Counted from the stretch's first letter, positions 12,937-37,084 are shown. The stretch is DNA of 64,000 nt from Spirochaetia bacterium (GCA_963675665.1 OY776510.1:2336001-2400000); one strand, 5' to 3'. The notes: generated by a model from the letters alone, not told the origin. Translations and numbers: made by a program.

Positions 12937-12975
12937 ATAAAAAATCCCCGCCCGATGAATGTTTATCGGGCGGGG
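12937..12975 (-). terminator. Rho-independent terminator of the candidate sRNA
   Basis: CCCCGCCCGAT-aaacattc-ATCGGGCGGGG-ATTTTTT on the minus strand. Confidence 0.85.
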
Positions 12976-13029
12976 TAAAAGGAGGTTATGAAAATTCAGC
13001 ATTACAGCACTTGTCCCTGTTGTAATGCC
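12937..13029 (-). ncRNA. Candidate trans-acting sRNA (5' hairpin, anti-SD seed, intrinsic terminator)
   Basis: Extended -10 TGgTATCCT at 13044-13036; 5' stem GCATTACA/TGTAATGC (13028-12999); linker UUUUCAUAACCUCCUUUU (12994-12977); perfect 11-bp stem 12975-12946 followed by U6. Confidence 0.65.
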
Positions 13030-13035
13030 GGTAAC

Positions 13036-13100
13036 AGGATACCAAAAAACTGAGGGGCGTTGGTTAAGGGCATGTAAACTGAATGTAAACAATGTAAAAA
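13036..13100 (-). promoter_or_regulatory. Putative OmpR/CpxR-type activator site plus -10 element (copy A)
   Basis: ttggttaagggcatgtaaactgaatgtaaacaatgtaaaaa (13060-13100) has four GT(A/T)AA repeats and matches 25651-25691 at 33/41. Confidence 0.7.
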
Positions 13101-13149
13101 AGAAATGCTGTTTTATCGATTCCCCGTGGTTAATACTGTCTTAAAATTC

Positions 13150-13175
13150 AAAAAGACCGCCCTGCCGGGCGGCCT
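13150..13175 (-). terminator. Rho-independent terminator of asd
   Basis: AGGCCGCCC-ggca-GGGCGGTCT-TTTT on the minus strand, about 40 nt after the asd stop. Confidence 0.75.
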
Positions 13176-13212
13176 GAAAAAATCGATATGTTTACTTGAA
13201 ATGAACGCTGCA

Positions 13213-14328
13213 TTACCCCAGATGCTCAAGCACAATCTTTATCATTCGTCTGACCGGTTCGGCGGCTCCCCAAAGCAGCTGATCTCCGACCGAAAAGGCT
13301 GTCAGGTATTCGTTACCCAGATTCATCTTGCGCACGCGGCCGACCGGAACGGTAAGGGTTCCGGTAACTGCAGCCGGAGTCAGCTCTGCCAAAGTGGCGG
13401 ATTTTTCGTTCGGAACGAATTTTACCCAGTCGTTATGAGAAGAGATGATATTCTGTATCTCATCAAGCGGAATATCTTTTTTCAGTTTAATTGTAAAAGC
13501 CTGGCTGTGACACCTCATTGAGCCTATTCTTACGCATTGCCCGTCTATCGGAATCGGCGAGTCTTCCCGGCCGAGTATCTTGTTTGTTTCCGAAATACCT
13601 TTCCATTCTTCTTTTGTCTGTCCGTTTTCCATTGGGGCGTCAATCCAGGGGATAAGGCTTGCGGCAAGCGGCGCTCCGAAGTTCTGGATCGGAAAAGTTT
13701 CATTGCGTAAGGTAGAAGTGATTGTCCGGTCAAGATCAAGTATAGCCGACGACAGGTTGTCCAGATCCGGCGAAGCGTTTCCTGTTATCTGCATTTGTTT
13801 AACCAGCTCGCGCATATTTTTTGCGCCGGCGCCCGATGCCGCCTGGTATGTCATTGACGTTAGCCATTCTACAAGATCTTTTTCAAAAAGTCCGCCGAGC
13901 GCCATAAGCATAAGCGATACTGTGCAGTTCCCGCCGATATAGTCTTTTATACCCGAAACAAGTCCGTTATCGATTACAGATTTGTTTACAGGATCAAGCA
14001 CTATTATACTGTCCTTGTTCATTCTGAGTGTTGAGGCAGCATCAATCCAGTAGCCTTCCCAACCGGCGGCTCTGAGTTCAGGATGCACCTTTGTAGTGTA
14101 AGAACCGCCCTGACATGTCACAATTACATCCATTGTCGACAGACTTTTAATGTCGTAAGCGTCTGCCAGAGGGGGCGTTGCAACGCCGATATCCGGCCCT
14201 TTCTGTCCGGCTTGTGAAGTCGAGAAGAAAAGCGGTTCAAAGCCGTTAAAGTCCTTTTCAGAAAGCATTCTTTCCATCAGAACCGAGCCGACCATGCCTC
14301 TCCATCCGATGAACCCTACTTTAACCAT
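13213..14328 (-). CDS. asd: Aspartate-semialdehyde dehydrogenase (E. coli-like type)
   Basis: [22 protein letters not shown], catalytic [30 protein letters not shown]. Confidence 0.97.
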
Positions 14329-14475
14329 GTTTAGGTCTCCTTATAATATTAGAGGTCCCGAAAATTCTGTTTCGGAGGCACTCCTTAAGTTTTTTGCTTT
14401 TAAATTAGTATAGATAAACTATGTGATATTAAAATATAGTATATTTATCAGGTTTTAGTCTATATTTCTGAATCA

Positions 14476-15792
14476 CTATATTTTATCCTGTCTGAAGAAA
14501 TATAACGCTATCAGCAGTGTCATACTTTCTGCAAACAGGAATGTAAGCCAGATGCCTCTGTTTCCCAGCAAAAGAGGCAACACGGCAAGACCGATCAGCA
14601 GCATAACAAGGCTGCGCGACAGCGCTATAACAGCAGACTGGGCAGGTCGGTCGATTGCAGTGAAAAACATGGCGGCAGTGATATTAACTCCCAGCAGAAG
14701 CAATGAAAAACTGTAATAGAAGGTAATCTCTGATGCAAGTGCAATGACCTGCAAATCCGATACAAATACAGCTGCAGCCTGGTTGCGGAAAAGTTGCAGC
14801 AGAATAAAGGCGATCAGTCCGAATCCGAGATTTGTCAGTATTGCGAGATTTCGAAAGCCTTTTACGCGTTTTATCATGCCTGCGCCCTTATTGAAGCTGA
14901 CGCCTGCATGAATTGCCTGTGCTGTGCCGTAAAAGATAATACCGAAAATTTCACCGACGTATGCTGCTATACTATAGGCGGCAACTCCGTGCGCTCCGAT
15001 ACGGTGCATCAACACCAGATTGAAGATATATACCGATATCCCGATCGATGTTTCGTCTACAAACTCGGATACTCCGTTATAACACATTCGTAAGAATTCC
15101 TTCAATCTGAAGACCGGTTTAACAAATTTCCATTTTGTACGGAATACAAGATAAAACTGCATTGCCGAGAATGGGATAACCTGTGAAAACCCTGTAGCAA
15201 GCGCCGCCCCTTCAATACCCAGTCCGAGACGACCTACCAGCAGGTAATCACAGATAACGTTTGTTAATGATCCTGCAAGCATCATCGCAACGGGAAAAAC
15301 CGGCGAGCCGTCTCCCCTGATAAAAAGATCCTGGGTGAAGGTAAACATAAAAAGAGGCGAGAACATCAGAATTATCCGCAGGTAATTCTGAACAAGCAGC
15401 TCTACACTGTCGTCGGCTCCCAGCAGGGCGGGAATAAAACGAAGCATACCAAGTCCGAGCAACAGCACAACTATACTGAAAGCGGCAAGTGAGAGCATTG
15501 TTACTGTATAGTAGTTATCGGCGTTCCGGTTTTTCCCTGCGCCCCTGGAAATGTTTGCGAGTGTCGAGCCGCCTATGCCTATCATCAGGCTTATTCCGGA
15601 AAAGACCATTACAAGCGGCCATGCCAAGTTGATGGCGGCCAGGCCGTCCGGGCCTACAAAACGACCGATAAAGATGCCGTCAATGACCTGCGCTGTAGAC
15701 ATCGCCAGCATACCCAGAACAGAAGGCACAGCGTAACGAATAAAGATTTTTAATATCGGATCTTTTCCAAGAGCCAGTTTGGACTTTTTCAT
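14476..15792 (-). CDS. MATE family efflux transporter
   Basis: About 12 TM; IDGIFIGRFVGPDGLAAINL, RGDGSP, GIEGAALATG; start could be GTG at 15801. Confidence 0.92.
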   Translation of the reverse strand: MKKSKLALGKDPILKIFIRYAVPSVLGMLAMSTAQVIDGIFIGRFVGPDGLAAINLAWPLVMVFSGISLMIGIGGSTLANISRGAGKNRNADNYYTVTMLSLAAFSIVVLLLGLGMLRFIPALLGADDSVELLVQNYLRIILMFSPLFMFTFTQDLFIRGDGSPVFPVAMMLAGSLTNVICDYLLVGRLGLGIEGAALATGFSQVIPFSAMQFYLVFRTKWKFVKPVFRLKEFLRMCYNGVSEFVDETSIGISVYIFNLVLMHRIGAHGVAAYSIAAYVGEIFGIIFYGTAQAIHAGVSFNKGAGMIKRVKGFRNLAILTNLGFGLIAFILLQLFRNQAAAVFVSDLQVIALASEITFYYSFSLLLLGVNITAAMFFTAIDRPAQSAVIALSRSLVMLLIGLAVLPLLLGNRGIWLTFLFAESMTLLIALYFFRQDKI

Positions 15793-15860
15793 TTTAATCA
15801 CCCGGCGGCAAATTTGCCGCCGCTATGGATTATGATTATACAACTATAAATGCCGGAAGA

Positions 15861-16412
15861 TCAGTCTTTAATTTTTTCCCTTATATCTTCAAGCGACATT
15901 CCTCTTTTTTCAGCTTCCTCAAGGATTATCCTGACTGCTTCAGCTGCAGCTTTTCCTACTATGCCGGTGCATTTTTCAGTATGTGCTCCGTCAGCATTGA
16001 ACTGATCCATTTCAACCTGGCTCCACATATTATAATTTCGGCCGAAAAGTTTTTTATGAATGTCTTTGCATGTAATGGTCCCGTATTCCCTGATGAAAGA
16101 CTGTCGAAGCTTCAGCGTCATGTCGTAGGCGGTAGTTTTATCTTCAACGTCTCCGTCCATCGCCGAACGGCGTCTTCCGAATATGGATGCCATTGCAAGA
16201 CTTCCTCCAGCGTATCCGCCGCATATTCCGTCGCACATCCTTCCGCCGCCTCCTGCAAAACCGGTACAGGCTTTTATAAGGTTGGGGTTATCTATTCCAA
16301 GTGTGTCATAAATACCTATCATTGTACACTGCGCACAGCCGCCGTATTCTTTTTCGGCTTCAAAGCCCGATTCATATGCTTTTTGCATCAATTCTTTTTT
16401 GTTTTCGATCAT
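15861..16412 (-). CDS. C-GCAxxG-C-C family putative redox protein
   Basis: GGCAQC, GFAGGGG...ICGGYAGG, TCKDI, KCTGIV cysteine pattern. Confidence 0.85.
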   Translation of the reverse strand: MIENKKELMQKAYESGFEAEKEYGGCAQCTMIGIYDTLGIDNPNLIKACTGFAGGGGRMCDGICGGYAGGSLAMASIFGRRRSAMDGDVEDKTTAYDMTLKLRQSFIREYGTITCKDIHKKLFGRNYNMWSQVEMDQFNADGAHTEKCTGIVGKAAAEAVRIILEEAEKRGMSLEDIREKIKD

Positions 16413-16525
16413 ATGTTTACCTCTGATACCATATTACAGAAAAAAACTGCTTTTGACATTATTTGAAATTTTTTTTTGATCATAACCAATTTATGTTTAT
16501 AATTAATATATAAGGGGGATAGCTT

Positions 16526-16849
16526 ATGAAAATCAGATTATTAGCAGAATCTCCACTGGTTTTTGAAGACCACAACGTTCAGGGACGGGAGATGTATGAA
16601 AAAAGCGGTACAACCGTTGTTCATCTTCTGCTCGAAAAAGGCGGAATCCTTCCGTCCGTTGCACAACATCATGATGTATTCTTTTATGTTCTTGAAGGGA
16701 AAGGCCGGATATCGGTGGGTGATGAGTTATTTGATGTCGAATCCGACACACTTGTAAAATGTCCGATTGATATTCCACATGGCGCGGAGAATACCGGAAA
16801 GGACGTTTTAAAACTGTTGATGGTCAAATCTCCTACAAGTACTCCATAA
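16526..16849 (+). CDS. Cupin domain protein
   Basis: FFYVLEGKG...PIDIPHGAEN cupin motifs; AAGGGGG SD. Confidence 0.85.
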   Translation: MKIRLLAESPLVFEDHNVQGREMYEKSGTTVVHLLLEKGGILPSVAQHHDVFFYVLEGKGRISVGDELFDVESDTLVKCPIDIPHGAENTGKDVLKLLMVKSPTSTP

Positions 16850-16862
16850 ATGGAGTACTCCA

Positions 16863-16887
16863 TAAAAGACCCGGCTAGGGTCTTTTA
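16863..16887. terminator. Bidirectional terminator between convergent genes
   Basis: TAAAAGACCC-ggcta-GGGTCTTTTA. Confidence 0.6.
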
Positions 16888-17729
16888 AACTCGCAGGGAA
16901 CTCCGGTCTGGCATAAACCGCATCCGTAAATACCCTGCCATTCGTAGAGTATGCCGTACTGCGCGCTGATGCGTATCATATCGTGCTCATTACACGGAGC
17001 TTTGTCCCTTTCCCGGTTGTTTTCTCCTATTGAGCCGACCGGGCAGCGGGTTATACATGCCCCGCACGTTCCTTTGGCAGTTTTAAGGCACCATGCAAAA
17101 GGATCATCGCCGTATTCCCTTATGTCGGGTTCAAGCGCAAGAGTGGTTACTACGCTTCCAAGACGGTGTGCGATTCCGCGCTTTGTAATCAGTCCGCCCG
17201 AGATTCCGAAGGTTCCGTGTCCGGCCGCCCAGGCATAATGCCGTTCCGACCAGGGTGATGCAATTCCGACCGGTGTGTTTTCAATAAATCCGAAGTCGTC
17301 CATAATTGCCGGCGCACACGACTGGTAGCCCGCTGCAGTCAGCCATTCGGACAGCCCGGAACGCATCCTTTCGTTCATGTTCTCTCCGAATGTGCGGGTC
17401 CAGGCCCAGTTTCTGGACGGGTAGTATTTTTCTTTTCGGTTTGATTTTCTTGCAGGTTCGGATATCGGTAAACACCAGCTTATAACTGAAGCGGCGTCTG
17501 CCGCTTTCACACTTCCATAAGCTTTTTGGAGGGCTTCATCAGGGCTCCAGTGAAAGTCGCCTATTATATTTTTGAACTCATCTATAACGTGATCTTTTAC
17601 GGAAGCTATACGCACATCCGGTTCGCTGAAAACAGGCCCTCCGCCCAGCTCTTCAGGTAATATCTCAAGCTCTTTGTTATATAACTCAAGCACTTTTTGA
17701 GTTATTGTTTTGCGGTTGATATCAGGCAT
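16875..17729 (-). CDS. QueG/reductive-dehalogenase-like 4Fe-4S protein
   Basis: WSERHYAWAAGHGTFG, RLGSVVT, C-x6-CGACITRCP, CGLCQTGVPC. Confidence 0.8.
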   Translation of the reverse strand: MPDINRKTITQKVLELYNKELEILPEELGGGPVFSEPDVRIASVKDHVIDEFKNIIGDFHWSPDEALQKAYGSVKAADAASVISWCLPISEPARKSNRKEKYYPSRNWAWTRTFGENMNERMRSGLSEWLTAAGYQSCAPAIMDDFGFIENTPVGIASPWSERHYAWAAGHGTFGISGGLITKRGIAHRLGSVVTTLALEPDIREYGDDPFAWCLKTAKGTCGACITRCPVGSIGENNRERDKAPCNEHDMIRISAQYGILYEWQGIYGCGLCQTGVPCEFKRP

Positions 17730-17782
17730 AATTGAAGTTATTTTATATTGGATCGATTTGTCAATATCAGTTATTCTAAGTA

Positions 17783-18685
17783 ATGAGCATTTTTCTGCTT
17801 TGGTTCAGCATATTTTCTTTTACTGTCTTTACGCTTTCAATAATGCCGGTTGTTTTAGGATGGAAACAGCGCGGCAGAAATAAAGCCGACAGTTTTTACC
17901 TGCTGTTGATGATTAGTTATTGTATATGGCTTATCATATTCTCAATATTATATTTCAGCGATGCTTTTGTCCGGCCGTTGAGTGCTTCTGTCAGAACTGT
18001 TTTTAGTATTTTCAGGATGACTATTACAATTGCAGTCGTTCTTCTTTATTCCATATTGGCAGGAGAACTTGCCGGACGTGGTTCTTCAGGCAGATATAAA
18101 TATCTTGTTTTTATTGCGCCTGCCGTTTATTCTGTTTTACTTTTCCCTGTCCTCTTGAAGTCCTCTGTTTTCTTTGCCGGGCTTGTAACATTTTTATTTT
18201 ATTTTTATATGGGCGGAATTTCAGCCTGTATATTTTATATATTTAAAAAGCATAAGAAAACTCAAAGAAATTTTGTCTGGTTTATAAGGTTGATGCTGAT
18301 ATATAATCTGGCCGGCCTTCTTCTGGTTATTCTTCCTCTACAAAACATCAGTTTGAATTGCGCAATGGTTTTAAGTGTTCTTCCGCGGGCTGCGTTTTGT
18401 CTTGCCTGGGGGATTCTTGAACTGGTTTATTTTATTCTGCGAGAATTCAAAAAAGAGCGTGAAGGAGCAGTTCTGATCCATTCAGTTTTTGCCGACGACT
18501 TTAAAATTACAGCCCGGGAGCAGGATGTTATTTCCTGTATTTTGACCGGTCTCAGCAACAGGCAGACTGCAGCGAAACTTTTTATCTCCGAAAAAACAGT
18601 GGAAACTCATATTTACAGCGTTTACCGAAAGTGCAATGTTAAAAATAAAATTGAGCTGTTAAATCTTATCTCAAATCACTGCTAA
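17783..18685 (+). CDS. Membrane-anchored (about 7 TM) LuxR-family transcriptional regulator
   Basis: Hydrophobic N-terminal region; C-terminal ITAREQDVI...GLSNRQTAAKLFISEKTVETHIYSVYRK HTH. Confidence 0.88.
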   Translation: MSIFLLWFSIFSFTVFTLSIMPVVLGWKQRGRNKADSFYLLLMISYCIWLIIFSILYFSDAFVRPLSASVRTVFSIFRMTITIAVVLLYSILAGELAGRGSSGRYKYLVFIAPAVYSVLLFPVLLKSSVFFAGLVTFLFYFYMGGISACIFYIFKKHKKTQRNFVWFIRLMLIYNLAGLLLVILPLQNISLNCAMVLSVLPRAAFCLAWGILELVYFILREFKKEREGAVLIHSVFADDFKITAREQDVISCILTGLSNRQTAAKLFISEKTVETHIYSVYRKCNVKNKIELLNLISNHC

Positions 18686-18794
18686 GGGTTTTCCCTTATA
18701 TACATTTTTTTGAAATTTTCAGTGATCCTCCTGATACCGGTTGAATTATGAACCGGTTAAAATCTGTAAGAAAAATAATATCGGGAGAATAAAA

Positions 18795-19574
18795 ATGAAA
18801 GATTTTTTATGGAAGGTTTATTTCATTATTATTGTGATGAGCCTGACAGGTGCAGCCGGGATTGTTCCCTATTCACTCTCTCTGGCTGGGGCCGGAACCG
18901 GAGGAGTACCGCTCTCACTGTTGATGCTGGCGACTTTTCTTCAGTCGTTTCTGATTTCCGCCGTGCTTGGTTTTTTCGGATTACGTCTCAGTCTGAATAC
19001 CGGTCTTGGGCTTCCGGTGGTTGAGAATCTTCTCTATCGGGGCAGGGGCCGGGTTATCAACATCAGAAGACATATTATTATGCCCGTCGTCTCCGGAATT
19101 CTATGCGGCCTTGTAATGATTATCTTTGATTTTGTATTGATGGAACTGTTTCAGCTTAAAGCGGCTTCGGACATTGCGGCTCCGGCCTGGTGGAAAGGAA
19201 TACTTGCAGCATTGTACGGAGGAATGTCGGAAGAAATAATGCTTCGTCTTTTTGCAATGAACCTCATTATCTTCATTCTCAATAAAATCGATAGAAACAA
19301 AAAGTCCCCGAAAGGAAAGGTGGTAACGGGAATGATAATTGCATCGGTTATTTTCGGAGCAGCACATCTTGCTGCGGTCTTTGCTTCCGGTCTTGCGTCT
19401 CCGGGATTTATTATCAGGACTCTGATTCTTAATTTTGTGCCCGGAATGGTTTTCGGCTGGCTGTACTGGAAACGCAGTTTTCTTTCCGCTGTTGTTGCTC
19501 ATTTTGCAGCCGATATTGTTGTTCATGTTGCAGCCCGCTTTATAATTGACGGCCTGATGCAGGCAGCTTACTAA
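18795..19574 (+). CDS. CPBP (Abi/CAAX protease-like) intramembrane metalloprotease
   Basis: EEIMLRLF, FGAAH, GWLYWKR...AVVAHF motifs; GGGAG SD before ATG 18795. Confidence 0.88.
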   Translation: MKDFLWKVYFIIIVMSLTGAAGIVPYSLSLAGAGTGGVPLSLLMLATFLQSFLISAVLGFFGLRLSLNTGLGLPVVENLLYRGRGRVINIRRHIIMPVVSGILCGLVMIIFDFVLMELFQLKAASDIAAPAWWKGILAALYGGMSEEIMLRLFAMNLIIFILNKIDRNKKSPKGKVVTGMIIASVIFGAAHLAAVFASGLASPGFIIRTLILNFVPGMVFGWLYWKRSFLSAVVAHFAADIVVHVAARFIIDGLMQAAY

Positions 19575-20890
19575 ATGTAAGCTGCCAGTGCCCTCAGGGC
19601 AGCATAATGACTTGCCGCGGCAGAGAAGAGATTGTTCTTTATCTGTTCGTATTCCAGCCTGGTTTCTTCAAGTTCCGCGGCCGAATACTCGCCCAGTTCA
19701 TGAAGAAAATCAGCTTCATCAAGCAGCTCTTCAGCCTGTTCAAGTTCAATCACGGCTGCTTCATAGTTAATAGCCGCTGTTTCTGCGGCAGTAACAGCCT
19801 GTTTGAGACTCAGCTGTTCTGCGTTTATAGTCTGAACAGCCTGCCTGCGGCTTATTTCAAGCTCTGCTGCAAGCTCAGCGCGTTCCTCTGCATTCCAGTC
19901 GTCGAGCCCGAAGCTGACAGCTGCTGTGGCGGAGAATGTCGGCTGAAGATTGGACGGCGAGATGGAAAGGTTCCCGCTTATGCTTAGATCCGGCTCAAAA
20001 AGCCAGGTGTTCTTAAGCTGCAGCTCAAGACTTTGGGCAGCTGTTTCGGCGCTGTATACTGCGTAACTGCCGTTTATTGCAAGTTCTGCTGAATTTATTT
20101 CATTCTGCATCGTTTCAATATTATTAAACAGATCAGCCTCGGCAGGCAGTTCCAGATTTACGACCGCGGAGTCAATATTCAGTATGGAATACAGCTCTGC
20201 TTCGGCTGTCTGCAGTTTACTTAAAGCATCATTTGCTGATGTTCTTGATTCGGACCAGGCTGTAAACGCTTCCCTGACATCGTCAAGGGTTGATTCGCCT
20301 TTTTCAAAGCGTACTTTCTCATCCTCATAAAGGATCTGCTTCACATCCGCCGTATCAAGCTTGACATCGTAATCTGAAACTGCAGCAGCCCAGTCAAGAT
20401 AGCCCGCAACAGCGGCATCGGATATCTCCGTGGCCTTGTCTTCGGCGGCCGCCAGTTTTGATTCGTAAGCCAGCCTTGTCTCTTCGGTGCTGCCGGAATG
20501 AGAAAGTGGATTAAGGCTTATACTGAAAGTTCCGGTAAAATCCTCATCAACACTTGCTCCCAGGCTGAGTTGTTCGATTACCGGCAATGAAGCTGATGCC
20601 TGCCATCCGAATCCCGAATCATCTGCAGAAGCTTCTGCAGCATCGGTATTGTCGGTGTTTTTCTGTCCATATGAGCCCGACAGACTGATTGAAGAGCTGT
20701 CGAGTTTAATTATTCCCTCAAGCGCGTGTTCAGCTTTCAATACCTCCAGCACGGCGGATTTGTATTCAAGATTATTAAGCAGGGCTGTTTGTTCTGCCTG
20801 CTCTATTGTATTGATTGTTTCCGCGGATGCCGCAGCGGTAATAATTACCGCCGCGGAAATCACGGACACAAGTATTTTCCATAATTTCAT
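19571..20890 (-). CDS. TolC-family outer-membrane efflux protein
   Basis: Signal peptide, repeated helical OEP pattern (RFEKGESTLDDV, HELGEYSAAEL); last gene of the efflux operon. Confidence 0.8.
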   Translation of the reverse strand: MKLWKILVSVISAAVIITAAASAETINTIEQAEQTALLNNLEYKSAVLEVLKAEHALEGIIKLDSSSISLSGSYGQKNTDNTDAAEASADDSGFGWQASASLPVIEQLSLGASVDEDFTGTFSISLNPLSHSGSTEETRLAYESKLAAAEDKATEISDAAVAGYLDWAAAVSDYDVKLDTADVKQILYEDEKVRFEKGESTLDDVREAFTAWSESRTSANDALSKLQTAEAELYSILNIDSAVVNLELPAEADLFNNIETMQNEINSAELAINGSYAVYSAETAAQSLELQLKNTWLFEPDLSISGNLSISPSNLQPTFSATAAVSFGLDDWNAEERAELAAELEISRRQAVQTINAEQLSLKQAVTAAETAAINYEAAVIELEQAEELLDEADFLHELGEYSAAELEETRLEYEQIKNNLFSAAASHYAALRALAAYI

Positions 20891-20900
20891 TTCGACCTTC

Positions 20901-22208
20901 CTATACTTCGCGGATTGTTTCCGCTATGTTGCCTTTTACTGCTGATATTGCAGGCAGTAGTCCAAGCACTCCGCCGAAACCAAGGGCCATGGCAAGCGCA
21001 GCCGCCAGCGCCGGGATTTTTATACCGGAATCGGCCTGGAACTGGCCGGAAATCTCGCCGAGAAGCGGCGAAAGATTATTCATAACCGGTTTTGCCAGAA
21101 TCAGCGAAAGAACTACTCCGATCAATGCCCCTGCAAGGCTCAGTGTCAAAGACCAGCTCCAGAACTCCTTTACAACAAGCTGTTGTGAAGCCCCGAGGGC
21201 TCTTTCAAGAGCTATTTCACGCCTTCGGCTTAACGACTCGACCACCATAATGCTGAATATTCCGAGTGAGCTTGTAAGCAACAGGACAATGCCGAGAATA
21301 TTGACGGATACGGTAAACATGTCAACTGTATTCCTCAGCTCTTCCATATAGCTTGACTGACCGTTCAGCGAACCTTCCCAGACAAGCACGTCAATATCAT
21401 CTCCGTAATTGGCGGCAAGCGTCTGGTTCAGTGCAGCTGTAGTCTGGGCAGCTGATGCTCCTTCACTTCGAACAATAAACATCCCGGACATAAAGTCGAG
21501 CGTTCTCTGAATATTTCCCCCTGAAGGCGTAAGCGCAGTGTATGGGAAAACCATATCGCCTATCCCGTAGGCTCTGCGGGCGACTTCCGACGGGGTTTCA
21601 TAGACGCCGGCAACTGTGAAATTTGTAATCACATTCTGCTCTCTGCCGCCCGGGCCCCTGTTCATCATCTCTCCGGGAGGCTGGATATATTTCCCTACGG
21701 CGGCTTCAGCTGAACCGTAAAGCAGGACAGCGGTTTCTTCGGAGATCCAGACCTTCTTCTGTCCCATTTCAATATCGTTTTCGGACATGGGTGTGCCTTC
21801 AATAATATCAAGCCCGAAAACTTCAAAGTACTGATAATCTGATCCTACTACGGATCGAAGATCATAACTTGTTGCATCGGTGGTTATGTTCTCAAACGGA
21901 AGCCGGTAAATGATCGCCGCATTTTTTACAGATTCAATATCGCTTACAACAATATCTGTTGCATTGCTGTCCCATTCAGAAGGACGGTTTTGATCTACCA
22001 TGCCGTCGCTGTCCCATTCTCCGTTGGCAACATAAAGGACAACTCCGTTTTTATCCAGCTGTGCGGATATTTCTTCATCAAGTATTCTGCTTGCTGAAAG
22101 CGAAAGGATAAGAATTCCGGTTCCAAGTGCAACAGCAGACAGGGTCAAAATTATCTTCAACGGAGATTTTGACCAATGGCGTAAAAGCATAGTTATAAAT
22201 TTTTTCAT
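20901..22208 (-). CDS. MacB/FtsX-like ABC transporter permease
   Basis: N-terminal TM, periplasmic domain, C-terminal SRRREIALERALGAS FtsX motif. Confidence 0.9.
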   Translation of the reverse strand: MKKFITMLLRHWSKSPLKIILTLSAVALGTGILILSLSASRILDEEISAQLDKNGVVLYVANGEWDSDGMVDQNRPSEWDSNATDIVVSDIESVKNAAIIYRLPFENITTDATSYDLRSVVGSDYQYFEVFGLDIIEGTPMSENDIEMGQKKVWISEETAVLLYGSAEAAVGKYIQPPGEMMNRGPGGREQNVITNFTVAGVYETPSEVARRAYGIGDMVFPYTALTPSGGNIQRTLDFMSGMFIVRSEGASAAQTTAALNQTLAANYGDDIDVLVWEGSLNGQSSYMEELRNTVDMFTVSVNILGIVLLLTSSLGIFSIMVVESLSRRREIALERALGASQQLVVKEFWSWSLTLSLAGALIGVVLSLILAKPVMNNLSPLLGEISGQFQADSGIKIPALAAALAMALGFGGVLGLLPAISAVKGNIAETIREV

Positions 22209-23596
22209 GATGCGCTCCTCATGGCTTGTGCCGGATCAATTTTCATAAACTGCCTGGACGGTATCAGTCCGAACAAAACAGTCATCATTCCGGCCAGTAC
22301 GGCGCCCAATGCTATGTAAAGCCATGAACCTGTTTCAATTCCTGCAGCAGTTTCCATATAGCCGCTTAACGGTACGGCAAGCAGTGCGCCTGCAGCTCCG
22401 CCTGATATTGCAAGAATCAGGGCTTCAGACAGAAAAAGTTTTCTTATACTGTTTTTTGATGCTCCCAGGGCCATCAGAATGCCTACATTCTTTTTCATCC
22501 GAAGTACCCGGCTCATAAGAATGTTTGATACGTTTACAAGCGCAATAAAAAATCCGGCAGCTGAAAGAAACAGAATGAGCGCGCCTATACCGGTGTTCCT
22601 TGAAACAAGTTGCTCTGCTTCGGCGCGGGGATTGGATATTACCACCTGTTCGTCGCCGAACTGCGATGAAAACCAGTCGTTCAGCAGTGTTGCTGTTGAG
22701 TCAAGATCCTCAGGATCCGCAACCGCAAACCGAAGCTGGGTATTCATGAACATCCTTCTGAATCCTTCCATTCCGCCTGTCCGGTCCTTGTATGGAGCAA
22801 AGAACTGCATGTCATAGCTGTCTGAAACAGGGGCAAGTATTCCTATTATTGTCTGATAACCGTCTCTTGCAAGAAGCTTTTTGCCCAGCAGTTCCGAAAC
22901 GTCCATATCATCTCCGGCAATAAGTTCCGCAAGATCCGCGCCGAGGACAATCAGGTTATCGGTGCCCGACAGATCCGATTCGGAGAACAGGCTGCCGGCG
23001 GCGGCTGTTATGTCCCAGGAACTGAAGAACTGGGGTGTAACCTCGTACCCGGAAACCTCATCCAGATCAGACAGAATTATGTTTGAGTCGGCTTCAGCCG
23101 CAGCAAGATCTTCTTCTGAAATCATCTGGAAACCGGGGCCCGGGGCTCCTTCAGGCATTTCCGAATTGTCAGGGGCAGCAGCCCCGTCTTCTGCCGAAGC
23201 GTTCTCAGGCGCCTCCATTCCTTCGGGAGGTCCGAAATTATTTGAATCGGATGATATAAGATGCAGACGGCTGTGGTTCTGTACATACGCCCATTCTACT
23301 CCCGGCGCCAGTTCCGCCGCTTCAAGATCCGAAACGGTCAGAACCGCGGTTTCCTGAATAAGTTTTTCCTTTACCGGCGTCTCCATTTCACTCGATTCGC
23401 TTCTGGTGCTTACGATAAGTTCCTTGTATTCAGGTGATCTCATAATTTCATTGGAGAACTCGACAGTGTTCATTATCAGCGACAATCCTGCCGAGAATGC
23501 ACCGATACCAAGCGCCACCGCAATAATAAGCAGTCCCGACTCGAGCGTACGATTGCGGAACCTGCGCATTATGATTTTAAAGGGTTCGTTAAGCAT
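22205..23596 (-). CDS. MacB/FtsX-like ABC transporter permease
   Basis: GGAGG SD before ATG 23596; NVSNILMSRV...GILMALGAS; DPAQAMR C-terminus. Confidence 0.9.
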   Translation of the reverse strand: MLNEPFKIIMRRFRNRTLESGLLIIAVALGIGAFSAGLSLIMNTVEFSNEIMRSPEYKELIVSTRSESSEMETPVKEKLIQETAVLTVSDLEAAELAPGVEWAYVQNHSRLHLISSDSNNFGPPEGMEAPENASAEDGAAAPDNSEMPEGAPGPGFQMISEEDLAAAEADSNIILSDLDEVSGYEVTPQFFSSWDITAAAGSLFSESDLSGTDNLIVLGADLAELIAGDDMDVSELLGKKLLARDGYQTIIGILAPVSDSYDMQFFAPYKDRTGGMEGFRRMFMNTQLRFAVADPEDLDSTATLLNDWFSSQFGDEQVVISNPRAEAEQLVSRNTGIGALILFLSAAGFFIALVNVSNILMSRVLRMKKNVGILMALGASKNSIRKLFLSEALILAISGGAAGALLAVPLSGYMETAAGIETGSWLYIALGAVLAGMMTVLFGLIPSRQFMKIDPAQAMRSAS

Positions 23597-24281
23597 TCCC
23601 GGCCTCCGCATACGAAGAGCTGCTGTTAAGAATTCCATCGTGAAGTTCGATTACATAACCGGCCCGCTTTCCCTGTTCAGGGTTATGGGTTACCATAACT
23701 ACGGTAACGCCCTTGCGGTTCAACGATTCAAGTATCTCCATAATTTCTTCGCCTTTGTCAGAAGGAAGGTTTCCGGTCGGCTCGTCGGCGAGAATAAGAT
23801 CCGGATCGTTTGAAAGGGAACGGGCAATTGCAACCCTTTGCTGTTCTCCTCCGGAAAGCATGGTTGGAAGATGCGTCAACCGGTGTCCAAGTCCCACTTC
23901 ATGAAGAAGCTGTACGGCTTTTTCCTTTCTTGTTTTGAATGGAAGCCCTGCGTAACTCATCGGCAGCATTACATTTTCTACGGCGGACAGTTCCGGAAAA
24001 AGGTTGAAACTCTGGAATATAAATCCGAAATGTTTATTGCGAATTCTCGCCTGCTCCTTATCCGGCAATGCCGTGATATCATAATCTTCAAGGTAATATT
24101 TTCCGCTGGTGGCACTGTCAAGAATGCCGAGTATATGCATCATGGTTGATTTTCCGGATCCCGACGGTCCCATTATTGCAGCATAATCGCCGCGGTTGAT
24201 TTCAAGTGATATATCTTTGAGAGCGGTTACTGTGGTGCCCCCAAGATCGTATTGTTTGCTGATTTGTTCTAATCTAATCAT
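23589..24281 (-). CDS. ABC transporter ATP-binding protein (MacB/LolD-like)
   Basis: GPSGSGKS, LSGGEQQRVAIAR, LADEPTGNL. Confidence 0.95.
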   Translation of the reverse strand: MIRLEQISKQYDLGGTTVTALKDISLEINRGDYAAIMGPSGSGKSTMMHILGILDSATSGKYYLEDYDITALPDKEQARIRNKHFGFIFQSFNLFPELSAVENVMLPMSYAGLPFKTRKEKAVQLLHEVGLGHRLTHLPTMLSGGEQQRVAIARSLSNDPDLILADEPTGNLPSDKGEEIMEILESLNRKGVTVVMVTHNPEQGKRAGYVIELHDGILNSSSSYAEAGNA

Positions 24282-24293
24282 AATAATCTCCAA

Positions 24294-25589
24294 TTACTTT
24301 AAGACGACAACGTCTTCGTCTATAAAATTCTGATAACTGCTTGTTATTATTTCATCACCGGCAGTCAAACCGCTGAGAACCTCAACAGTGGTTCCTTCAA
24401 TTGATCCGAAAGTAACCTTTGTTTTATACGCTTTTCCGTCTTCAACTTTATAAACCCATTTCTGGCTGCCGGTCGTCAGGTATGAGCCGCGCGGCAGCAT
24501 AATTACGTCTTCTTCCACACCCAGGGTAATACTTGCGACAGCCGACGCCCCGGGGGTCAAAGTCTCTTCAGTAACAGGCTTTGCCCTTACAGTTATCATT
24601 GCAGAAAGTCCGTCTGAATCCATTGATGCAATTTTTCCAATCTTTACAATTTCAGCCTTCATTGTGTCAGACCCGATAGTGACTGTCATTTCACCGCCGA
24701 TTTCAAGCTGATCCACGTACTGCTCATACACATCAAAGTCGATATAGGATTCGGTACGATCGGCTACAATAAAAAGTTCGTCCGCTTTTTCTATCACGCT
24801 GCCCGGAATAGCCAGATCTTCATTTATACTGAGAACTTCGCCTGCAATCGGGCTTTTAACTTTTGTGTCCTCAATATCTTCGTTTATATTCTGAAGGTTT
24901 GTTCGAATCTGGGTTATAGCGGCCTGCTGTTTTCGCAGAGCAATATCTTTCTTTATTTCAGTTTCTTCAAGGCTGATCTGATAGTCTTCTTTCTGTTCAT
25001 AAAGTGTTTCGAGTTCATCAACTGCTGTTTCGTAATCTGTCAGGCGGGAGCTTTTCAGTTCTGAAAGTTCCTTAAGAGCCTGCACGTCTTCTTCCGCTTC
25101 GGTAATATCCTGTTCAAGACGTTTCAGCTGGATATTCAGATCTTTCAGCTGATAATCATAATCAGTATTTACAGATTCAAGCTCAATCAGCGCCTGTTCA
25201 AGACTGACCGTGAGTTCTTCCTGAGTGTCTTCAAGATCAGGCACATCAAGAGTTGCAAGAATATCTTCTGTTGTTATCAGGGTTCCTTCTTCGGTAAGCA
25301 GTTCATCTGCATACCCGTCGGCAGTACTGACGATGGTAACCTGGGCAGGGAGCACTACAGTTCCGCTTGCTTCGGTTGTTGATACAAGTTCGCCTGAATA
25401 TACTTCGGCTGTTGTATACGACTTGATGCTGACCGCTTCCGCCGATGCCTGCATTCTGAAAAAGATGAATGCGGCTGCGCCTATTGCCACAACAGCGGCA
25501 ATAGTAATTATTCTGCCGGCGCGTTTCTTTTTGGAAGCTGCCGGCCGGATGTTTTCAATGTTTATTATTCTTTCCTGTTCTGATCCCAT
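24294..25589 (-). CDS. Efflux periplasmic adaptor subunit (MacA/HlyD-like)
   Basis: N-terminal TM anchor, coiled coil, VKSPIAGEV, VEVLSGLTAGDEII; GAGG SD before ATG 25589. Confidence 0.9.
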   Translation of the reverse strand: MGSEQERIINIENIRPAASKKKRAGRIITIAAVVAIGAAAFIFFRMQASAEAVSIKSYTTAEVYSGELVSTTEASGTVVLPAQVTIVSTADGYADELLTEEGTLITTEDILATLDVPDLEDTQEELTVSLEQALIELESVNTDYDYQLKDLNIQLKRLEQDITEAEEDVQALKELSELKSSRLTDYETAVDELETLYEQKEDYQISLEETEIKKDIALRKQQAAITQIRTNLQNINEDIEDTKVKSPIAGEVLSINEDLAIPGSVIEKADELFIVADRTESYIDFDVYEQYVDQLEIGGEMTVTIGSDTMKAEIVKIGKIASMDSDGLSAMITVRAKPVTEETLTPGASAVASITLGVEEDVIMLPRGSYLTTGSQKWVYKVEDGKAYKTKVTFGSIEGTTVEVLSGLTAGDEIITSSYQNFIDEDVVVLK

Positions 25590-25626
25590 AAAAATCCTCG
25601 ATTCTTTCTTTTGCTTTACGATGACA

Positions 25627-25691
25627 AATATACTTCGACGGACAGACGGTTTGGTTAAGGGAATGTAACTGTTTTGTAAACTATGTAAAAA
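25627..25691 (-). promoter_or_regulatory. Putative OmpR/CpxR-type activator site plus -10 element of the efflux operon (copy B)
   Basis: ttggttaagggaatgtaactgttttgtaaactatgtaaaaa (25651-25691); -10 TATATT at 25632-25627, same offset as copy A. Confidence 0.7.
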
Positions 25692-25751
25692 GCGGAACCG
25701 TGAAAAAGAAGTTTTATAGCGAAAAAGTTGCAGAAAGGTTATTATAGTAGA

Positions 25752-27515
25752 ATGAAACATGAGAGAGTGCTTTCAAGAGCGTTTAACAGTCTTGTAGCGG
25801 TAATAGTTGCCTCAGTCTTGTCAATTGCAATATTTTTTGTGTATAAGACATATGAAAAAAGTGTCGAGACCGATATATTCAGGTATTCGCACAAACTTGA
25901 AGATTCGATAAGACGCATCGCAGCAGCAGAGTACCGAAGATATTTTCTGCTTGTCGATTTTGCAAAAACGGCCGGCACCAAGAACTCCGGAAATTCTATC
26001 GAGAAGATCCTTGAAGAGAAATCAACTATTCTGGGGAAGAACGGAGAGATTCCAAATCTTGTATCAAGTATAGGATATTATGACTCCTCTTCTCCTGAAT
26101 CTGCTTTGGAATATGATTTTGAATACCGTGAATGGTCGGAGCTGGATAATATTTTCAACAATGACGAACCTGATCGCAAGTCCGACTTTTTTTATGTCCG
26201 CTCCGGTTCCGCCCCGGAAAAATTGTACCTTGCGGTTGATAACGGCAGCACAGGCCGGGTGATTTTTTTCAGAGTGGATCCCCAGGGGTTTCTGGATAAT
26301 TATATCAGGGAAGTTGTGGAGAGTTCCAATGAAGAATTCAGGGTTGACTGGCTTAGAGGTTCCGATCCGGAATCACGCAGGATACTGGAAGATTATTTCG
26401 AATATGAATTGCTTCAATATCATTTCCGTCCGATGCAAATCCTTCTGAAAACCGGAAGTCAAAACCAGCCTTTGATAGTCGAAATTCCGATAATGTTCGA
26501 CATCAGACGTGTTTTTGATAACGGAAGTGCAGAACAGAAAGATGTAAATGATTTAAAACCGGGAAAGCCGATGTTTTTTGATTTCAGTTATTTCGTAAGG
26601 ATGATGCATAAAGATGGTTCCTACTATTATGAGATTGAACACGATGCGGCCGTAAGTTTTTTCGAAACAATCATAATCTTCATTACGATTGGAATACTTT
26701 TCATACTGCTGCTGTTCCAGCTTCAGAGGACCAGGCTTTTAAGAAGCAAGGAAAAGGAATTTGTTGCTTCAGTTACGCATGAGCTCAGAACTCCGTTGAC
26801 CGTCATTCGTTCTGCTGCTGATAACCTTTCAAACGGGATTGTGAACAAGGATAAATTGCCGGTTTACGGCGGGCTGATTATTGAGCAGTCGGAACGTCTG
26901 GGAAACATGATCGAAGAAATTCTGCTCTATTCAAATTTTGAGAATAAAAACAGTAATTCCGGAAAACCGGTGAAGTTCGATTTTAAGGAGGTTGTTTCAC
27001 AGTTTAAACCGGCTCTGGATGAGCTGGGTAATGCCGAAGGACTGAAACTTCACTGGGATATAAACGGACTGCCCGGAAAAGCCGAGAGTTTTCCTGATGT
27101 TATTACGCTTACTGTGAATAATCTTGTATCCAACGCTGTTAATCATGCTTATTCTGTTCCCGGCGGTGAAATCCGGATAATTATAAGATATCTGGTTCCG
27201 GGAAGATTGAGCATAACGGTTGAGGACGACGGACGGGGAATTGATCCGCGTGAGCTTAAGCATGTTTTTGAGCCTTTTTACAGAGACTATGTGAGCCGGA
27301 GCCGGCAGGAGAGGGGCAGCGGTCTGGGACTGTTTATTGCGCGGCGCAAAGCTGCTTTATGCGGAGGCAAGCTGACCGTCGAAAGCCCTTACAGAAGAAT
27401 CGACGGGAGCAAACTGTCAGGATGCAGGTTTGTATTGACGCTTCCCTGTACAGAGGCTGACGACTCCGCTAATATAAAACAAAAAACCTTAAAGGAGCCT
27501 GAAAATGGCCGCTGA
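25752..27515 (+). CDS. Sensor histidine kinase (2 TM, periplasmic sensor, HisKA and HATPase)
   Basis: FVASVTHELRTPL H-box, NLVSNA, VEDDGRGI, GSGLGL. Confidence 0.95.
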   Translation: MKHERVLSRAFNSLVAVIVASVLSIAIFFVYKTYEKSVETDIFRYSHKLEDSIRRIAAAEYRRYFLLVDFAKTAGTKNSGNSIEKILEEKSTILGKNGEIPNLVSSIGYYDSSSPESALEYDFEYREWSELDNIFNNDEPDRKSDFFYVRSGSAPEKLYLAVDNGSTGRVIFFRVDPQGFLDNYIREVVESSNEEFRVDWLRGSDPESRRILEDYFEYELLQYHFRPMQILLKTGSQNQPLIVEIPIMFDIRRVFDNGSAEQKDVNDLKPGKPMFFDFSYFVRMMHKDGSYYYEIEHDAAVSFFETIIIFITIGILFILLLFQLQRTRLLRSKEKEFVASVTHELRTPLTVIRSAADNLSNGIVNKDKLPVYGGLIIEQSERLGNMIEEILLYSNFENKNSNSGKPVKFDFKEVVSQFKPALDELGNAEGLKLHWDINGLPGKAESFPDVITLTVNNLVSNAVNHAYSVPGGEIRIIIRYLVPGRLSITVEDDGRGIDPRELKHVFEPFYRDYVSRSRQERGSGLGLFIARRKAALCGGKLTVESPYRRIDGSKLSGCRFVLTLPCTEADDSANIKQKTLKEPENGR

Positions 27516-28245
27516 AAAGAAACGAATACTGATAATTGAAGATGAACCCGGAGTTCAGATTACACTTGAGGACAGATTATCATCCGAAGGATACGAAGTT
27601 TCTGTCTGCGGCGACGGTATTGAAGGCGAAAAAGAAGCAAAAGCCGGCCGCCATGATCTGATACTGCTTGATGTGATGTTGCCGGGAAAGGACGGTTTTA
27701 CAATTTGCCAGGATCTTCGGAAGGCCGGGGAGGAAACTCCGATACTGATGCTGACCGCCCGCGATACCAGCATAGATACAATAATGGGGCTTCGTGTGGG
27801 TGCCGACGATTATCTGGCAAAACCGTTCGACATGCAGGTACTGCTGGCGCGGATTGAAGCGTTGTTGAGGAGAGCGGGCCGGCCCAATCCTGCAGCAACG
27901 CCGGAAAGCGGCTCTGTACGGGAAGGTTCTGGCGGGGACAATGATATCATCATTTTCGGCGGGTTTACTCTTGACCGCGGGAAGGGCCTTTTGGAGAACG
28001 ACGGGGCTGCTGTTGAACTGAATGCCCAGGAATATAAACTTCTTGAGTATCTTGCTGTCCACAGCGGGCGGATAATAAGCCGGAACGCCATTCTTGATGA
28101 TGTCTGGGGATATGAGAGTGAGGTAACGACCCGAACGGTAGATGTCCATGTCGCAAAACTCAGGCAGCGGTTGGGCGAATCGGAACGGCCTAAACATATT
28201 CAGACTTACAGAGGCAGGGGATATAAATTTGTTCTGAATGCGTGA
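27505..28245 (+). CDS. OmpR-family response regulator
   Basis: IIEDE, LLDVMLPGKDG, GADDYLAKPF, winged helix RTVDVHVAKLRQRL...TYRGRGYKF. Confidence 0.96.
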   Translation: MAAEKKRILIIEDEPGVQITLEDRLSSEGYEVSVCGDGIEGEKEAKAGRHDLILLDVMLPGKDGFTICQDLRKAGEETPILMLTARDTSIDTIMGLRVGADDYLAKPFDMQVLLARIEALLRRAGRPNPAATPESGSVREGSGGDNDIIIFGGFTLDRGKGLLENDGAAVELNAQEYKLLEYLAVHSGRIISRNAILDDVWGYESEVTTRTVDVHVAKLRQRLGESERPKHIQTYRGRGYKFVLNA

Positions 28246-36814: not shown

Positions 36815-36828
36815 TAATTACTAATTAA

Positions 36829-36970
36829 CAGTATGTTTCAATGGAATGAAGGTGAGATTCCTTCGCGATCCCGTCACTGTGATAGGGAAGGTTACGCATA
36901 AGCCACTGGCGAAAAGCCGGGAAGGCGCAGAACCTGTAAAACCCTTAAGTCAGGAAACTTTGGCATACTG
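36829..36970 (+). ncRNA. Cobalamin riboswitch
   Basis: GGAA...GGTGAGATTCC...GCGATCCC...CACTGT...AGCCACTG...GGGAAGG...B12 box AAGTCAGGAAAC; closing stem CAGTATG/CATACTG; upstream of a TonB-receptor operon. Confidence 0.9.
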
Positions 36971-37084
36971 CAATATATTCAGACTTCGCGGACTGAGTCG
37001 GAATGTGCCTTATGCTGATAAAGAAACATTAAGGTTTATCCCCCGAACAGTTCCTCGAATGAAAGTTTTTTCATGGAGGAAATG

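Follow-up and report, generated by a model that had tools for sequence, protein, structure and literature searches.

A 64,000-nt stretch of DNA from a Spirochaetia bacterium (GCA_963675665.1 OY776510.1:2336001-2400000; hereafter the window, with its own numbering unless genome positions are named) carries two copies of a 41-nt direct-repeat element, one (A) ahead of a candidate small RNA (sRNA) and one (B) ahead of a MacB-type efflux operon. Our comparison of genomes suggests that both are operators of a conserved promoter class through which the OmpR-family response regulator RR-B would activate a set of units including the pump and the sRNA, and that the sRNA would in turn repress a porin-like gene; we put the probability of this reading as a whole at roughly 0.6. 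Judged by sequence comparison, the regulon signal is real and conserved, and its sRNA arm is plausible and specific. The proposed circuit is of a known kind, in a lineage where literature searches gave nothing comparable: nothing was found that links a spirochaete OmpR-family regulator to a direct-repeat regulon, and the one paper bringing Treponema together with base-pairing sRNAs, response regulators and outer membrane proteins was a review of oral bacteria. To our knowledge, spirochaete gene regulation has been mapped in Borrelia and less so in Leptospira and Treponema, and is nearly unmapped elsewhere.

The two copies were described in an initial annotation of the window, and that description was borne out. 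A and B align without gaps with 33 of 41 positions identical, and both hold four GT(A/T)AA repeats spaced 11, 11 and 9 bp, which read GTTAA, GTAA(A/C), GTAAA and GTAAA in both copies. On the minus strand a -10 hexamer begins at the 19th base beyond the motif edge, after an 18-nt spacer (TATCCT at 13041-13036 and TATATT at 25632-25627), and a good -35 is absent; a consensus scan gave no sigma-70 -35/-10 pair at A, and at B its sole minus-strand match falls within the repeats. Read toward the -10, the half-sites of the operator are TTTACA, TTTACA, TTTACA and TTAAC at spacings of 9, 11 and 11 bp. An 18-mer from the shared end, allowed up to three mismatches, occurs in two places in the window, which are A and B; the expectation from shuffled sequence is 0.20, and two matches were reached in 1 of 100 shuffles. 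The annotation's placing of copy B between a minus-strand efflux operon and a plus-strand kinase/regulator pair was confirmed by Pfam, as was its assignment of the regulator at 27505 to the OmpR family, by a receiver and a Trans_reg_C domain.

A mismatch-tolerant scan of the genome, in which the window lies inside a single 5.15-Mb contig of 43% G+C, gave four copies beyond A and B, six in total (sites A to F, Table 1). Aligned without gaps in the -10 direction, all six have TTTACA at positions 3-8, 12-17 and 23-28 and TTAAC at 34-38, and the operator is followed by 18 nt and then by TATNNT. Because a position weight matrix made from these six sequences was overfitted, retrieving its own six sites only, degenerate patterns were used instead. 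With up to three mismatches, the 63-nt architecture was found at 6 sites here and at 33 sites across 9 of 11 family genomes, and its reversed-pattern control gave 0 sites in all 11. Of 41 genomes searched, 10 carry the shorter repeat core, including 8 of 10 from the family and 1 of 30 from the class's other families; its reversed control had 0 matches in all 41. The consensus of the 33 sites is tTTTTACATAgTTTACA-N5-TTTACA-N5-TTAACc-N20-TATatT. Agreement among them extends to positions that the pattern left free: a T precedes repeat 1 in 28/33, the T and A that follow it are present in 26/33 and 24/33, TTAAC is followed by C in 23/33, and the inner bases of the -10 hexamer are T, A and T in 24/33, 22/33 and 23/33.

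The annotation had allowed that the 41-mer might prove to be a dispersed repeat, and that it is one, or a chance similarity, rather than a promoter is extremely improbable. The repetition itself is the one point that speaks for such a view, whereas the similarity is limited to the half-sites and the -10, with spacers and flanks that differ; all six sites of this genome are intergenic and aimed at a downstream unit, with the hexamer at an identical offset; orthologous positions are kept across genera; and the reversed controls returned nothing. A fixed operator-to--10 distance (18 nt at all six sites) without a -35 is what characterizes an activator-dependent, class II-like promoter. The 41-mer is thus most likely the operator of a promoter class of this type, its four direct half-sites standing in for the -35.

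A regulon of two promoters had been proposed; A and B both belong to it, but the regulon is larger, with six sites in this genome alone. At sites B, D, E and F the start codon follows the -10 by 16-37 nt. Behind the 33 family sites are 10 adaptor-led pump operons, 4 operons led by an outer-membrane efflux protein (OEP), 3 Fe-S proteins, 4 genes for RR-E (the regulator behind site E; one copy is apparently truncated), 3 sRNA homologues and 9 other units, these last being the operon of an extracytoplasmic function (ECF) sigma factor at site C, DUF4405, SLH and no-family proteins, or nothing called; assignments made outside the Pfam scan rest on common N-termini. Sites orthologous to B stand upstream of the adaptor gene in G001, G003, G004, G005, G008, G010, G009 (twice) and L007 (G000 is the genome of the window, other G numbers are family genomes and L numbers extracted loci).

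Two further arrays, of three or four TGTAAA, were noted at genome positions 1117749 (+) (L005) and 4864527 (+) (L006), the latter directly upstream of a 452-aa gene with a response-regulator-like N-terminus. Their spacing is different (9/9/11 in the first, irregular in the second) and the 63-nt architecture does not match them, and they were left out. At sites a and b of G009 (L142, L151) and site b of G002 (L102) the pump operon has a leader of 100-190 nt, which in G009 includes a terminator-like hairpin and a common AAAGCUUUUAAA stretch; attenuation or another small RNA may be at work in these leaders.

Thirteen Trans_reg_C (PF00486) matches exceed the cut-off in the genome, and two of the regulators, RR-B and RR-E, adjoin sites; they are 32% identical to each other. 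By co-occurrence RR-B is likely the protein that binds the operator, and it is the best candidate because every orthologue is linked to a site and the two family genomes without an orthologue are without a site. RR-B matches at 61-76% identity number eight in seven genomes (G001, G002, G003, G004, G008, G010 and two in G009), and all eight lie on the same contig as a site, 1.7-1.9 kb from it, with a kinase orthologue between in divergent layout. G006 and G007 (81% and 86% complete) have no RR-B orthologue (best identities 40% and 36%) and no site; in G005 the regulator could not be assessed, as the site's contig stops within the kinase gene. The sole full-length relative of the kinase in the species-level genome collection is in a distant Spirochaetales metagenome-assembled genome (kinase 40% and regulator 60% identical), where an operator with 2 mismatches precedes the adaptor gene. 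The two-component system, operator and efflux operon are thus kept together in four genera and in this distant genome. The recognition helix TTRTVDVH is invariant in 10 aligned RR-B sequences (TTRTVDVH(V/I)A.LR), and RR-E reads YDRIVDSHIKNIR there.

The operator could be real and yet be bound by RR-E, which would then be autoregulated, or by an unlinked factor, with RR-B acting elsewhere. Positive autoregulation is common in the OmpR family, and site E lies directly upstream of the RR-E gene with TATAAT at the standard offset, an arrangement kept with the orthologues in G003 and G010. These two (62-78% identical, each straight behind a site) are, however, the only RR-E orthologues of at least 62% identity among 10 other family genomes, 8 of which have sites; RR-E differs from RR-B in its recognition helix as well as in two-thirds of its sequence, and no RR-B orthologue lacks a linked site. 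We therefore consider binding by RR-E or by an unlinked factor quite unlikely. RR-E is best read as a target and not as the binder, giving a cascade, because its orthologues occur in only two other genomes and always downstream of a site. At site b of G008 (L150) the RR-E orthologue is apparently truncated, with a stop after ~48 codons, and the best G008 match to RR-E is a 46% paralogue.

The unit behind operator A is predicted to give an RNA of ~91 nt that folds, with an energy of -36 kcal/mol (z -6.6), into a hairpin at the 5' end, an open linker of 22 nt (UGAAUUUUCAUAACCUCCUUUUA) and a terminator. Among the listed sequencing runs that contain this DNA, none is recorded as RNA. Two homologues were found in G003, both behind the same operator and -10 promoter, and the proposed association of sRNA and operator is therefore kept in all three. 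The three share the two-hairpin fold, an 8-nt apical loop and the invariant 12-mer GGACAAGUGCUG; covariation among so few sequences is thin, with 1 compensatory pair counted and one more read in the 5' stem. Rfam 15 held no family at gathering threshold for this RNA (best anti-hemB, 20.5 bits vs 49.5). Its own promoter, its intrinsic terminator, the conserved structure and the lack of a conserved open reading frame (ORF) fit a trans-acting, base-pairing sRNA. Synteny of the sRNA in related genomes had been named as a check, and of the nine motif-bearing genomes two, G000 and G003, were found to carry the sRNA arm.

It is very unlikely that this unit does not act in trans. It might be the terminated leader of the co-directional Fpg-like gene (12784-11957), which lies ~155 nt past the terminator, or the antisense of a plus-strand 21-aa gene (ATG 12989) preceded by a strong AGGAGG-N4-ATG. 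But what lies downstream differs among all three homologues and is convergent in one: a G003 copy (G003b) stands after asd, as in the window, and faces a convergent UDP-glucose dehydrogenase gene, while the other precedes an unrelated gene, which argues against a leader. The peptides encoded on the opposite strand (21, 15 and 20 aa) are unrelated and the invariant block is read in frames 2, 0 and 1, which argues against an antisense of a peptide gene, and no conserved ORF was seen on the sense strands of the three sequences. Both the leader and the 21-aa ORF readings were rejected on these grounds of context and frame.

The sole other exact copy of the 12-mer in the genome is at L003:8060-8135 (+) (genome ~1693118-1693193), past the last gene of the RR-E operon. 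There it lies in the loop of a terminator hairpin with CCUCC ahead of it, and a TTGCCG-17-TATTAT promoter-like site is found just upstream. A 10/12 version occupies the same place in the RR-E operon of G003 (L180 ~3225-3270), and none within 2 mismatches was found at the RR-E locus of G010. This 3' element may be a sibling or 3'-derived sRNA.

A candidate target emerged from the invariant block: apart from one change, codons 4-7 of a 607-aa gene (genome position 859447) match its complement. The 5' hairpin of the sRNA (UACA.CAGGGACAAGUGCUG) has its complement in nt +10 to +30 of this mRNA, the helix spanning codons 4-10, and by reading of the alignments the linker UUUUCAUA has one as well, in UAUGAAAA at the start codon. 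Ranked by duplex energy, this start region is 2nd of 8955; because RNA.duplexfold allows long interior loops and its energies are inflated, ungapped helices were also counted, and the region is among 5 of 8955 with one of at least 16 bp. At the orthologous site, pairing without interruption extends over 16 bp in G000, or 20 bp if one mismatch is allowed, and over 21 and 20 bp with the two sRNA copies of G003, so that complementarity to the start region of this target is conserved in two species as predicted helices.

The product of the 607-aa gene looks like an outer-membrane beta-barrel of the porin kind. It has a signal peptide, the N-terminus MKKIALVLAVLLCALPMMAFA and a C-terminus (...SVSF) that ends in the terminal Phe of such barrels, and an AF2 model (pLDDT 71.8, pTM 0.49) has ~20 beta strands with a helical insertion. 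Foldseek gave 109 matches at E <= 0.001; the top six are all entries for Rhodopseudomonas blastica porin (best E 1.7e-6, TM 0.44 by target), and AlgE, LptD, OmpG, MOMP and OmpU come next. No Pfam family matches the protein, its 14 relatives are all unnamed or 'hypothetical' with spirochaetes as the named sources, and among its neighbours in the Atlas are 'putative MSP porin' clusters, which we take as a lead only. A search of 5 family genomes gave no relative at E <= 1e-20, and orthologues were located via conserved 5' DNA, not by protein search. A consensus promoter, TTGACA-17-TATAAT, and a 5' untranslated region (UTR) of ~80 nt precede the coding sequence. Promoter, 5' UTR and the first ~9 codons (L203 / L182:880-1045) are 84-95% identical, across three genera, in G001, G003, G004, G008 and G010 (L204-L208); the mature proteins, from 360 to 607 aa, are barely alignable. 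The target core UAGCACUUGUCCU is invariant in six genomes, and its extension UGCUGUAC is found only in the two sRNA-bearing genomes.

An sRNA that is real and regulator-dependent could nevertheless leave this mRNA alone, the complementarity being a relic of the sRNA gene's descent from the inverted 5' end of a gene for a secreted protein, and the RNA acting through its CCUCC as an anti-Shine-Dalgarno (anti-SD) motif on many mRNAs, or by binding a protein, for example CsrA. In reverse complement the sRNA does look like a generic start region, AGGAGG-N4-ATGAAAA with signal-peptide-like codons, and conservation of the target core extends to genomes in which the sRNA was not found. The genome (96% complete) encodes CsrA but gave no family match for Hfq, and anti-SD motifs are described as being in use by alpha-r14 sRNAs (PMC10746234). 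Set against this are the long helices that fall on one orthologous site (20-21 bp for G003, 16 (+4) bp for G000), variation in the sRNA flanks that keeps the pairing through G.U or better, and the restriction of the target extension to sRNA-bearing genomes. Titration of CsrA is not favoured, though the hairpin loop has a GGA, as each RNA has a single GGA-containing loop and the related G003 3' element has none. On balance we regard a porin-independent sRNA as unlikely, if less so than the alternatives above, and prefer the porin-like mRNA as its target.

Several observations weigh against the reading as a whole. For dimers of the OmpR family, 9 bp is an unusual distance between the two distal repeats; site C has 2 mismatches and is remote from its gene, and the sites of relatives include no ECF-sigma site; and RR-E may have a role at the same sites in G000, G003 and G010. 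A covariance model of the three sRNA sequences recovered, at E <= 0.01 in 151 class genomes, only those three, with none in the 149 genomes other than the two that built the model, and a search of 5 more family genomes at E <= 1 gave weak matches only (E 0.055-0.92). Since the sRNA was found in two genomes only, its arm does not, as far as sequence similarity goes, belong to the regulon throughout the family. To pair, the sRNA would need to open the stable 5' hairpin in which the pairing region sits, the G000 duplex has an internal C.A mismatch and its start region is not the top-ranked one, and the start regions of the regulon's own genes are poor partners of the sRNA (ranks 6098-7678 of 8955). 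Finally, in 4 genomes where the sRNA was not found the porin-like gene retains both the target core and its entire 5' region at 84-95% identity; the constraint on this region is unusually strong and goes beyond what the sRNA alone explains.

If the reading holds, a signal would act through the kinase to give phosphorylated RR-B, and head-to-tail dimers of RR-B on the four half-sites would recruit RNA polymerase, replacing the -35. Six promoters would be switched on: those of the MacB-type pump, the second OEP and adaptor operon, the Fe-S/FMN/selenocysteine-peroxiredoxin operon, the RR-E operon, perhaps the ECF sigma operon, and the sRNA. Two efflux systems and a redox-defence operon would thereby be raised, and RR-E would extend the response as a cascade. 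The sRNA would pair with the early coding region of the strongly promoted porin-like mRNA and lower its translation, and the net effect of induction would be more efflux and less pore protein. The 63-nt promoter grammar predicts a regulon in at least nine genomes, and sequence alone yields a circuit of kinase and regulator, two efflux systems, a redox-defence operon, a cascade and a new sRNA family with a predicted target. If true, a distant diderm phylum would have arrived on its own at the coupling of pump induction to sRNA-mediated pore loss, apparently with no canonical Hfq involved, and operator and regulator would offer a handle for inducible expression in these organisms.

The origin of the sRNA gene may be legible in its own sequence. 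The reverse complement of each copy (window 12989-13054 (+) and the G003 counterparts) reads as a Shine-Dalgarno sequence (SD), ATGAAAA and signal-peptide-like codons, e.g. MKKVLSISALVPAV, and its resemblance to the porin-like 5' end hints that a target-like gene start, copied in inverted orientation, perhaps gave rise to the sRNA gene. A bolder version, which we hold to be possible but doubtful, is that the sRNA's own target supplied the gene, as an inverted copy of its 5' end (reverse complement SD-ATGAAAA...AGCACTTGTCC.TG.TGTA) that was captured behind the operator, making an Hfq-independent efflux-up/pore-down switch, with the 12-mer and CCUCC element in the terminator at the 3' end of the RR-E operon as a CpxQ-like sibling.

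The annotation had called the circuit Cpx-like, and this stands as an analogy but not as an assignment. RR-B is below the NCBIfam equivalog cut-offs for CpxR (141.1 bits vs 341 for NF008199), BaeR (149.3 vs 380), OmpR (177.5 vs 331) and PhoB (191.8 vs 296.2), as well as YycF (175.7 vs 340). The nearest solved structures are RegX3, RpaA, DrrD, PhoP (Mtb) and MtrA, and CpxR comes 40th of the 51 listed, with a match to the receiver domain only. The CpxR-type GTAAA-N5-GTAAA had been invoked for the sites; they have spacings of N6 and N4 and read GTAAA-N6-GTAAA-N4-GTAAA, which falls within the N4-8 form given in PMC5063474 but not the strict N5, and the half-site is common to WalR-type boxes. In the account of the same source, Pseudomonas aeruginosa CpxR activates mexAB-oprM via GTAAA-N(4-8)-GTAAA, and the Cpx response has an sRNA arm in CpxQ, which is described as deriving from the cpxP 3' UTR (PMC4817254). 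GTAAA direct repeats and, as predicted here, pump activation and an sRNA arm are common to both, whereas in our sites the repeats number four and keep a fixed distance to the -10. No CpxP-like gene was noted.

Other known systems resemble parts of the proposed circuit. In Escherichia coli, MarA, SoxS and Rob raise acrAB-tolC. They also control MicF, as does OmpR, and are described as 'involved in MDR phenotype' (MDR, multidrug resistance; PMC3617542). As in that circuit of OmpR, MarA, SoxS, Rob, MicF and OmpF, a transcription factor here would activate an sRNA that pairs with the start region of a porin mRNA, with efflux up and pore down; but the sRNA is dissimilar to MicF, the predicted pairing is at codons 4-10 and not mainly in the 5' UTR, the pump is of ABC type VII and not RND, and no Hfq match was found in the genome. 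PhoP-activated promoters of Bacillus subtilis have four TT(A/T/C)ACA-like repeats with ~11-bp periodicity in place of the -35, for which our literature search gave no confirmation. The central repeat pair fits the WalR/VicR box, TGTWAH-N5-TGTWAH in the consensus quoted in PMC4168254, at 5 of 6 sites here. Compared with WalR and PhoP, the gene set is another one, the distal pair is spaced 9 bp and the regulator is below the YycF/WalR and PhoB cut-offs. BaeSR is reported in PMC3799227 to regulate mdtA, and here too a two-component system presumably controls the pump beside it, but the cut-offs for BaeR and BaeS were not reached. The rhizobial sRNAs alpha-r14 and NfeR1 share with our RNA an unpaired CCUCC-type anti-SD motif and a two-component link, as far as these are set out in PMC10746234, and differ in having three hairpin loops with the motif vs one linker CCUCC here, in sequence and in structure.

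The features of the window and the targets of the six sites are collected in Table 1.

Table 1. Operators, predicted sRNA and neighbouring genes of the window, with the six operator sites of the genome (window coordinates unless marked as genome)
Feature	Position	Strand	Remarks
Operator A (site A)	13060..13100	-	0 mismatches to the 63-nt architecture; TTTACA at 3-8, 12-17, 23-28 and TTAAC at 34-38 in minus-strand reading; target: terminator-bounded ~91-nt unit
-10 hexamer TATCCT, sRNA promoter	13036..13041	-	18 nt beyond operator A; identical offset at all six sites of the genome
Operator B (site B)	25651..25691	-	divergent region between efflux operon and kinase gene; points to efflux operon; orthologous sites known; target: adaptor-led pump operon, ATG 37 nt past -10
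-10 hexamer TATATT, efflux promoter	25627..25632	-	start codon 37 nt downstream
Site C			target: ECF sigma operon, 385 nt away; weakest site
Site D			target: membrane 4Fe-4S protein, FMN_bind protein, peroxiredoxin; ATG 27 nt past -10
Site E			target: second OmpR-family regulator RR-E (genome 1690146-1690847) and two proteins without known family; TATAAT at standard offset; ATG 28 nt past -10
Site F			target: OEP and HlyD adaptor operon; start 16 nt past -10
Predicted ~91-nt sRNA	12939..13029	-	ends inferred; 5' hairpin 13029-12998 with apical loop GGGACAAG; linker with UUUUCAU and CCUCC; intrinsic terminator
sRNA terminator stem-loop	12946..12975	-	11 pairs, 9 G-C; followed by T-run
Outer-membrane efflux protein (OEP/TolC family), last operon gene	19571..20890	-	Pfam
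Permease 2 (MacB_PCD + FtsX)	20901..22208	-	Pfam
Permease 1 (MacB_PCD + FtsX)	22205..23638	-	Pfam
ABC ATPase	23589..24293	-	Pfam, NCBIfam; nearest to MacB ATPase part, then LolD, DarD
Periplasmic adaptor (HlyD / RND_mfp), first efflux gene	24294..25589	-	Pfam; NCBIfam TIGR01730, 117.1 vs cut-off 94.9
Conserved TATTAT, 6 nt ahead of kinase ATG	25740..25745	+	inferred from the regions of six genomes
Sensor histidine kinase (HisKA + HATPase_c)	25752..27515	+	Pfam; N-terminal part of ~330 residues without family match
OmpR/PhoB-family response regulator RR-B, proposed operator binder	27505..28245	+	PF00072 1.2e-27, PF00486 3.8e-26

The efflux operon has the parts of a tripartite ABC pump: a HlyD/RND_mfp adaptor, MacB_PCD and FtsX domains (twice) and an OEP. 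Its adaptor, its MacB_PCD/FtsX permeases, an ATPase nearest that of MacB and the OEP liken it to MacAB-TolC; but where E. coli MacB is one fused chain, here a separate 234-aa ATPase and two different permease genes are found in a LolCDE-like layout, and the MacB equivalog cut-off of 966 is not reached. The adaptor most likely starts at ATG 25589 and not at the ORF-list start 25760, because its N-terminus from there, MGSEQERIINI, agrees with MEQERIINI of the orthologues.

Upstream of the kinase gene, TATTAT (TAATAT in G003) stands at an identical distance of 6 nt from the ATG in G000, G001, G002, G003, G005 and G010, a placement that points to a leaderless mRNA for kinase and regulator. Between this TATTAT (window 25740-25754 region) and the operator there is also a conserved GCTATAAAA box.

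In the site-D operon, ORFs 3-4 (L002:2964-3746 (-), genome ~1252826-1253608) form an AhpC/TSA peroxiredoxin whose only interruption is a TGA, in frame and at the peroxidatic position. With this TGA translated as U the sequence becomes ...GDFTFVUSTEI..., and the protein is probably a selenocysteine peroxiredoxin. Elsewhere in the window, at 36816-36982 (+), a cobalamin riboswitch (RF00174, 70.3 bits, E 2.7e-15) is the sole Rfam match at gathering threshold.

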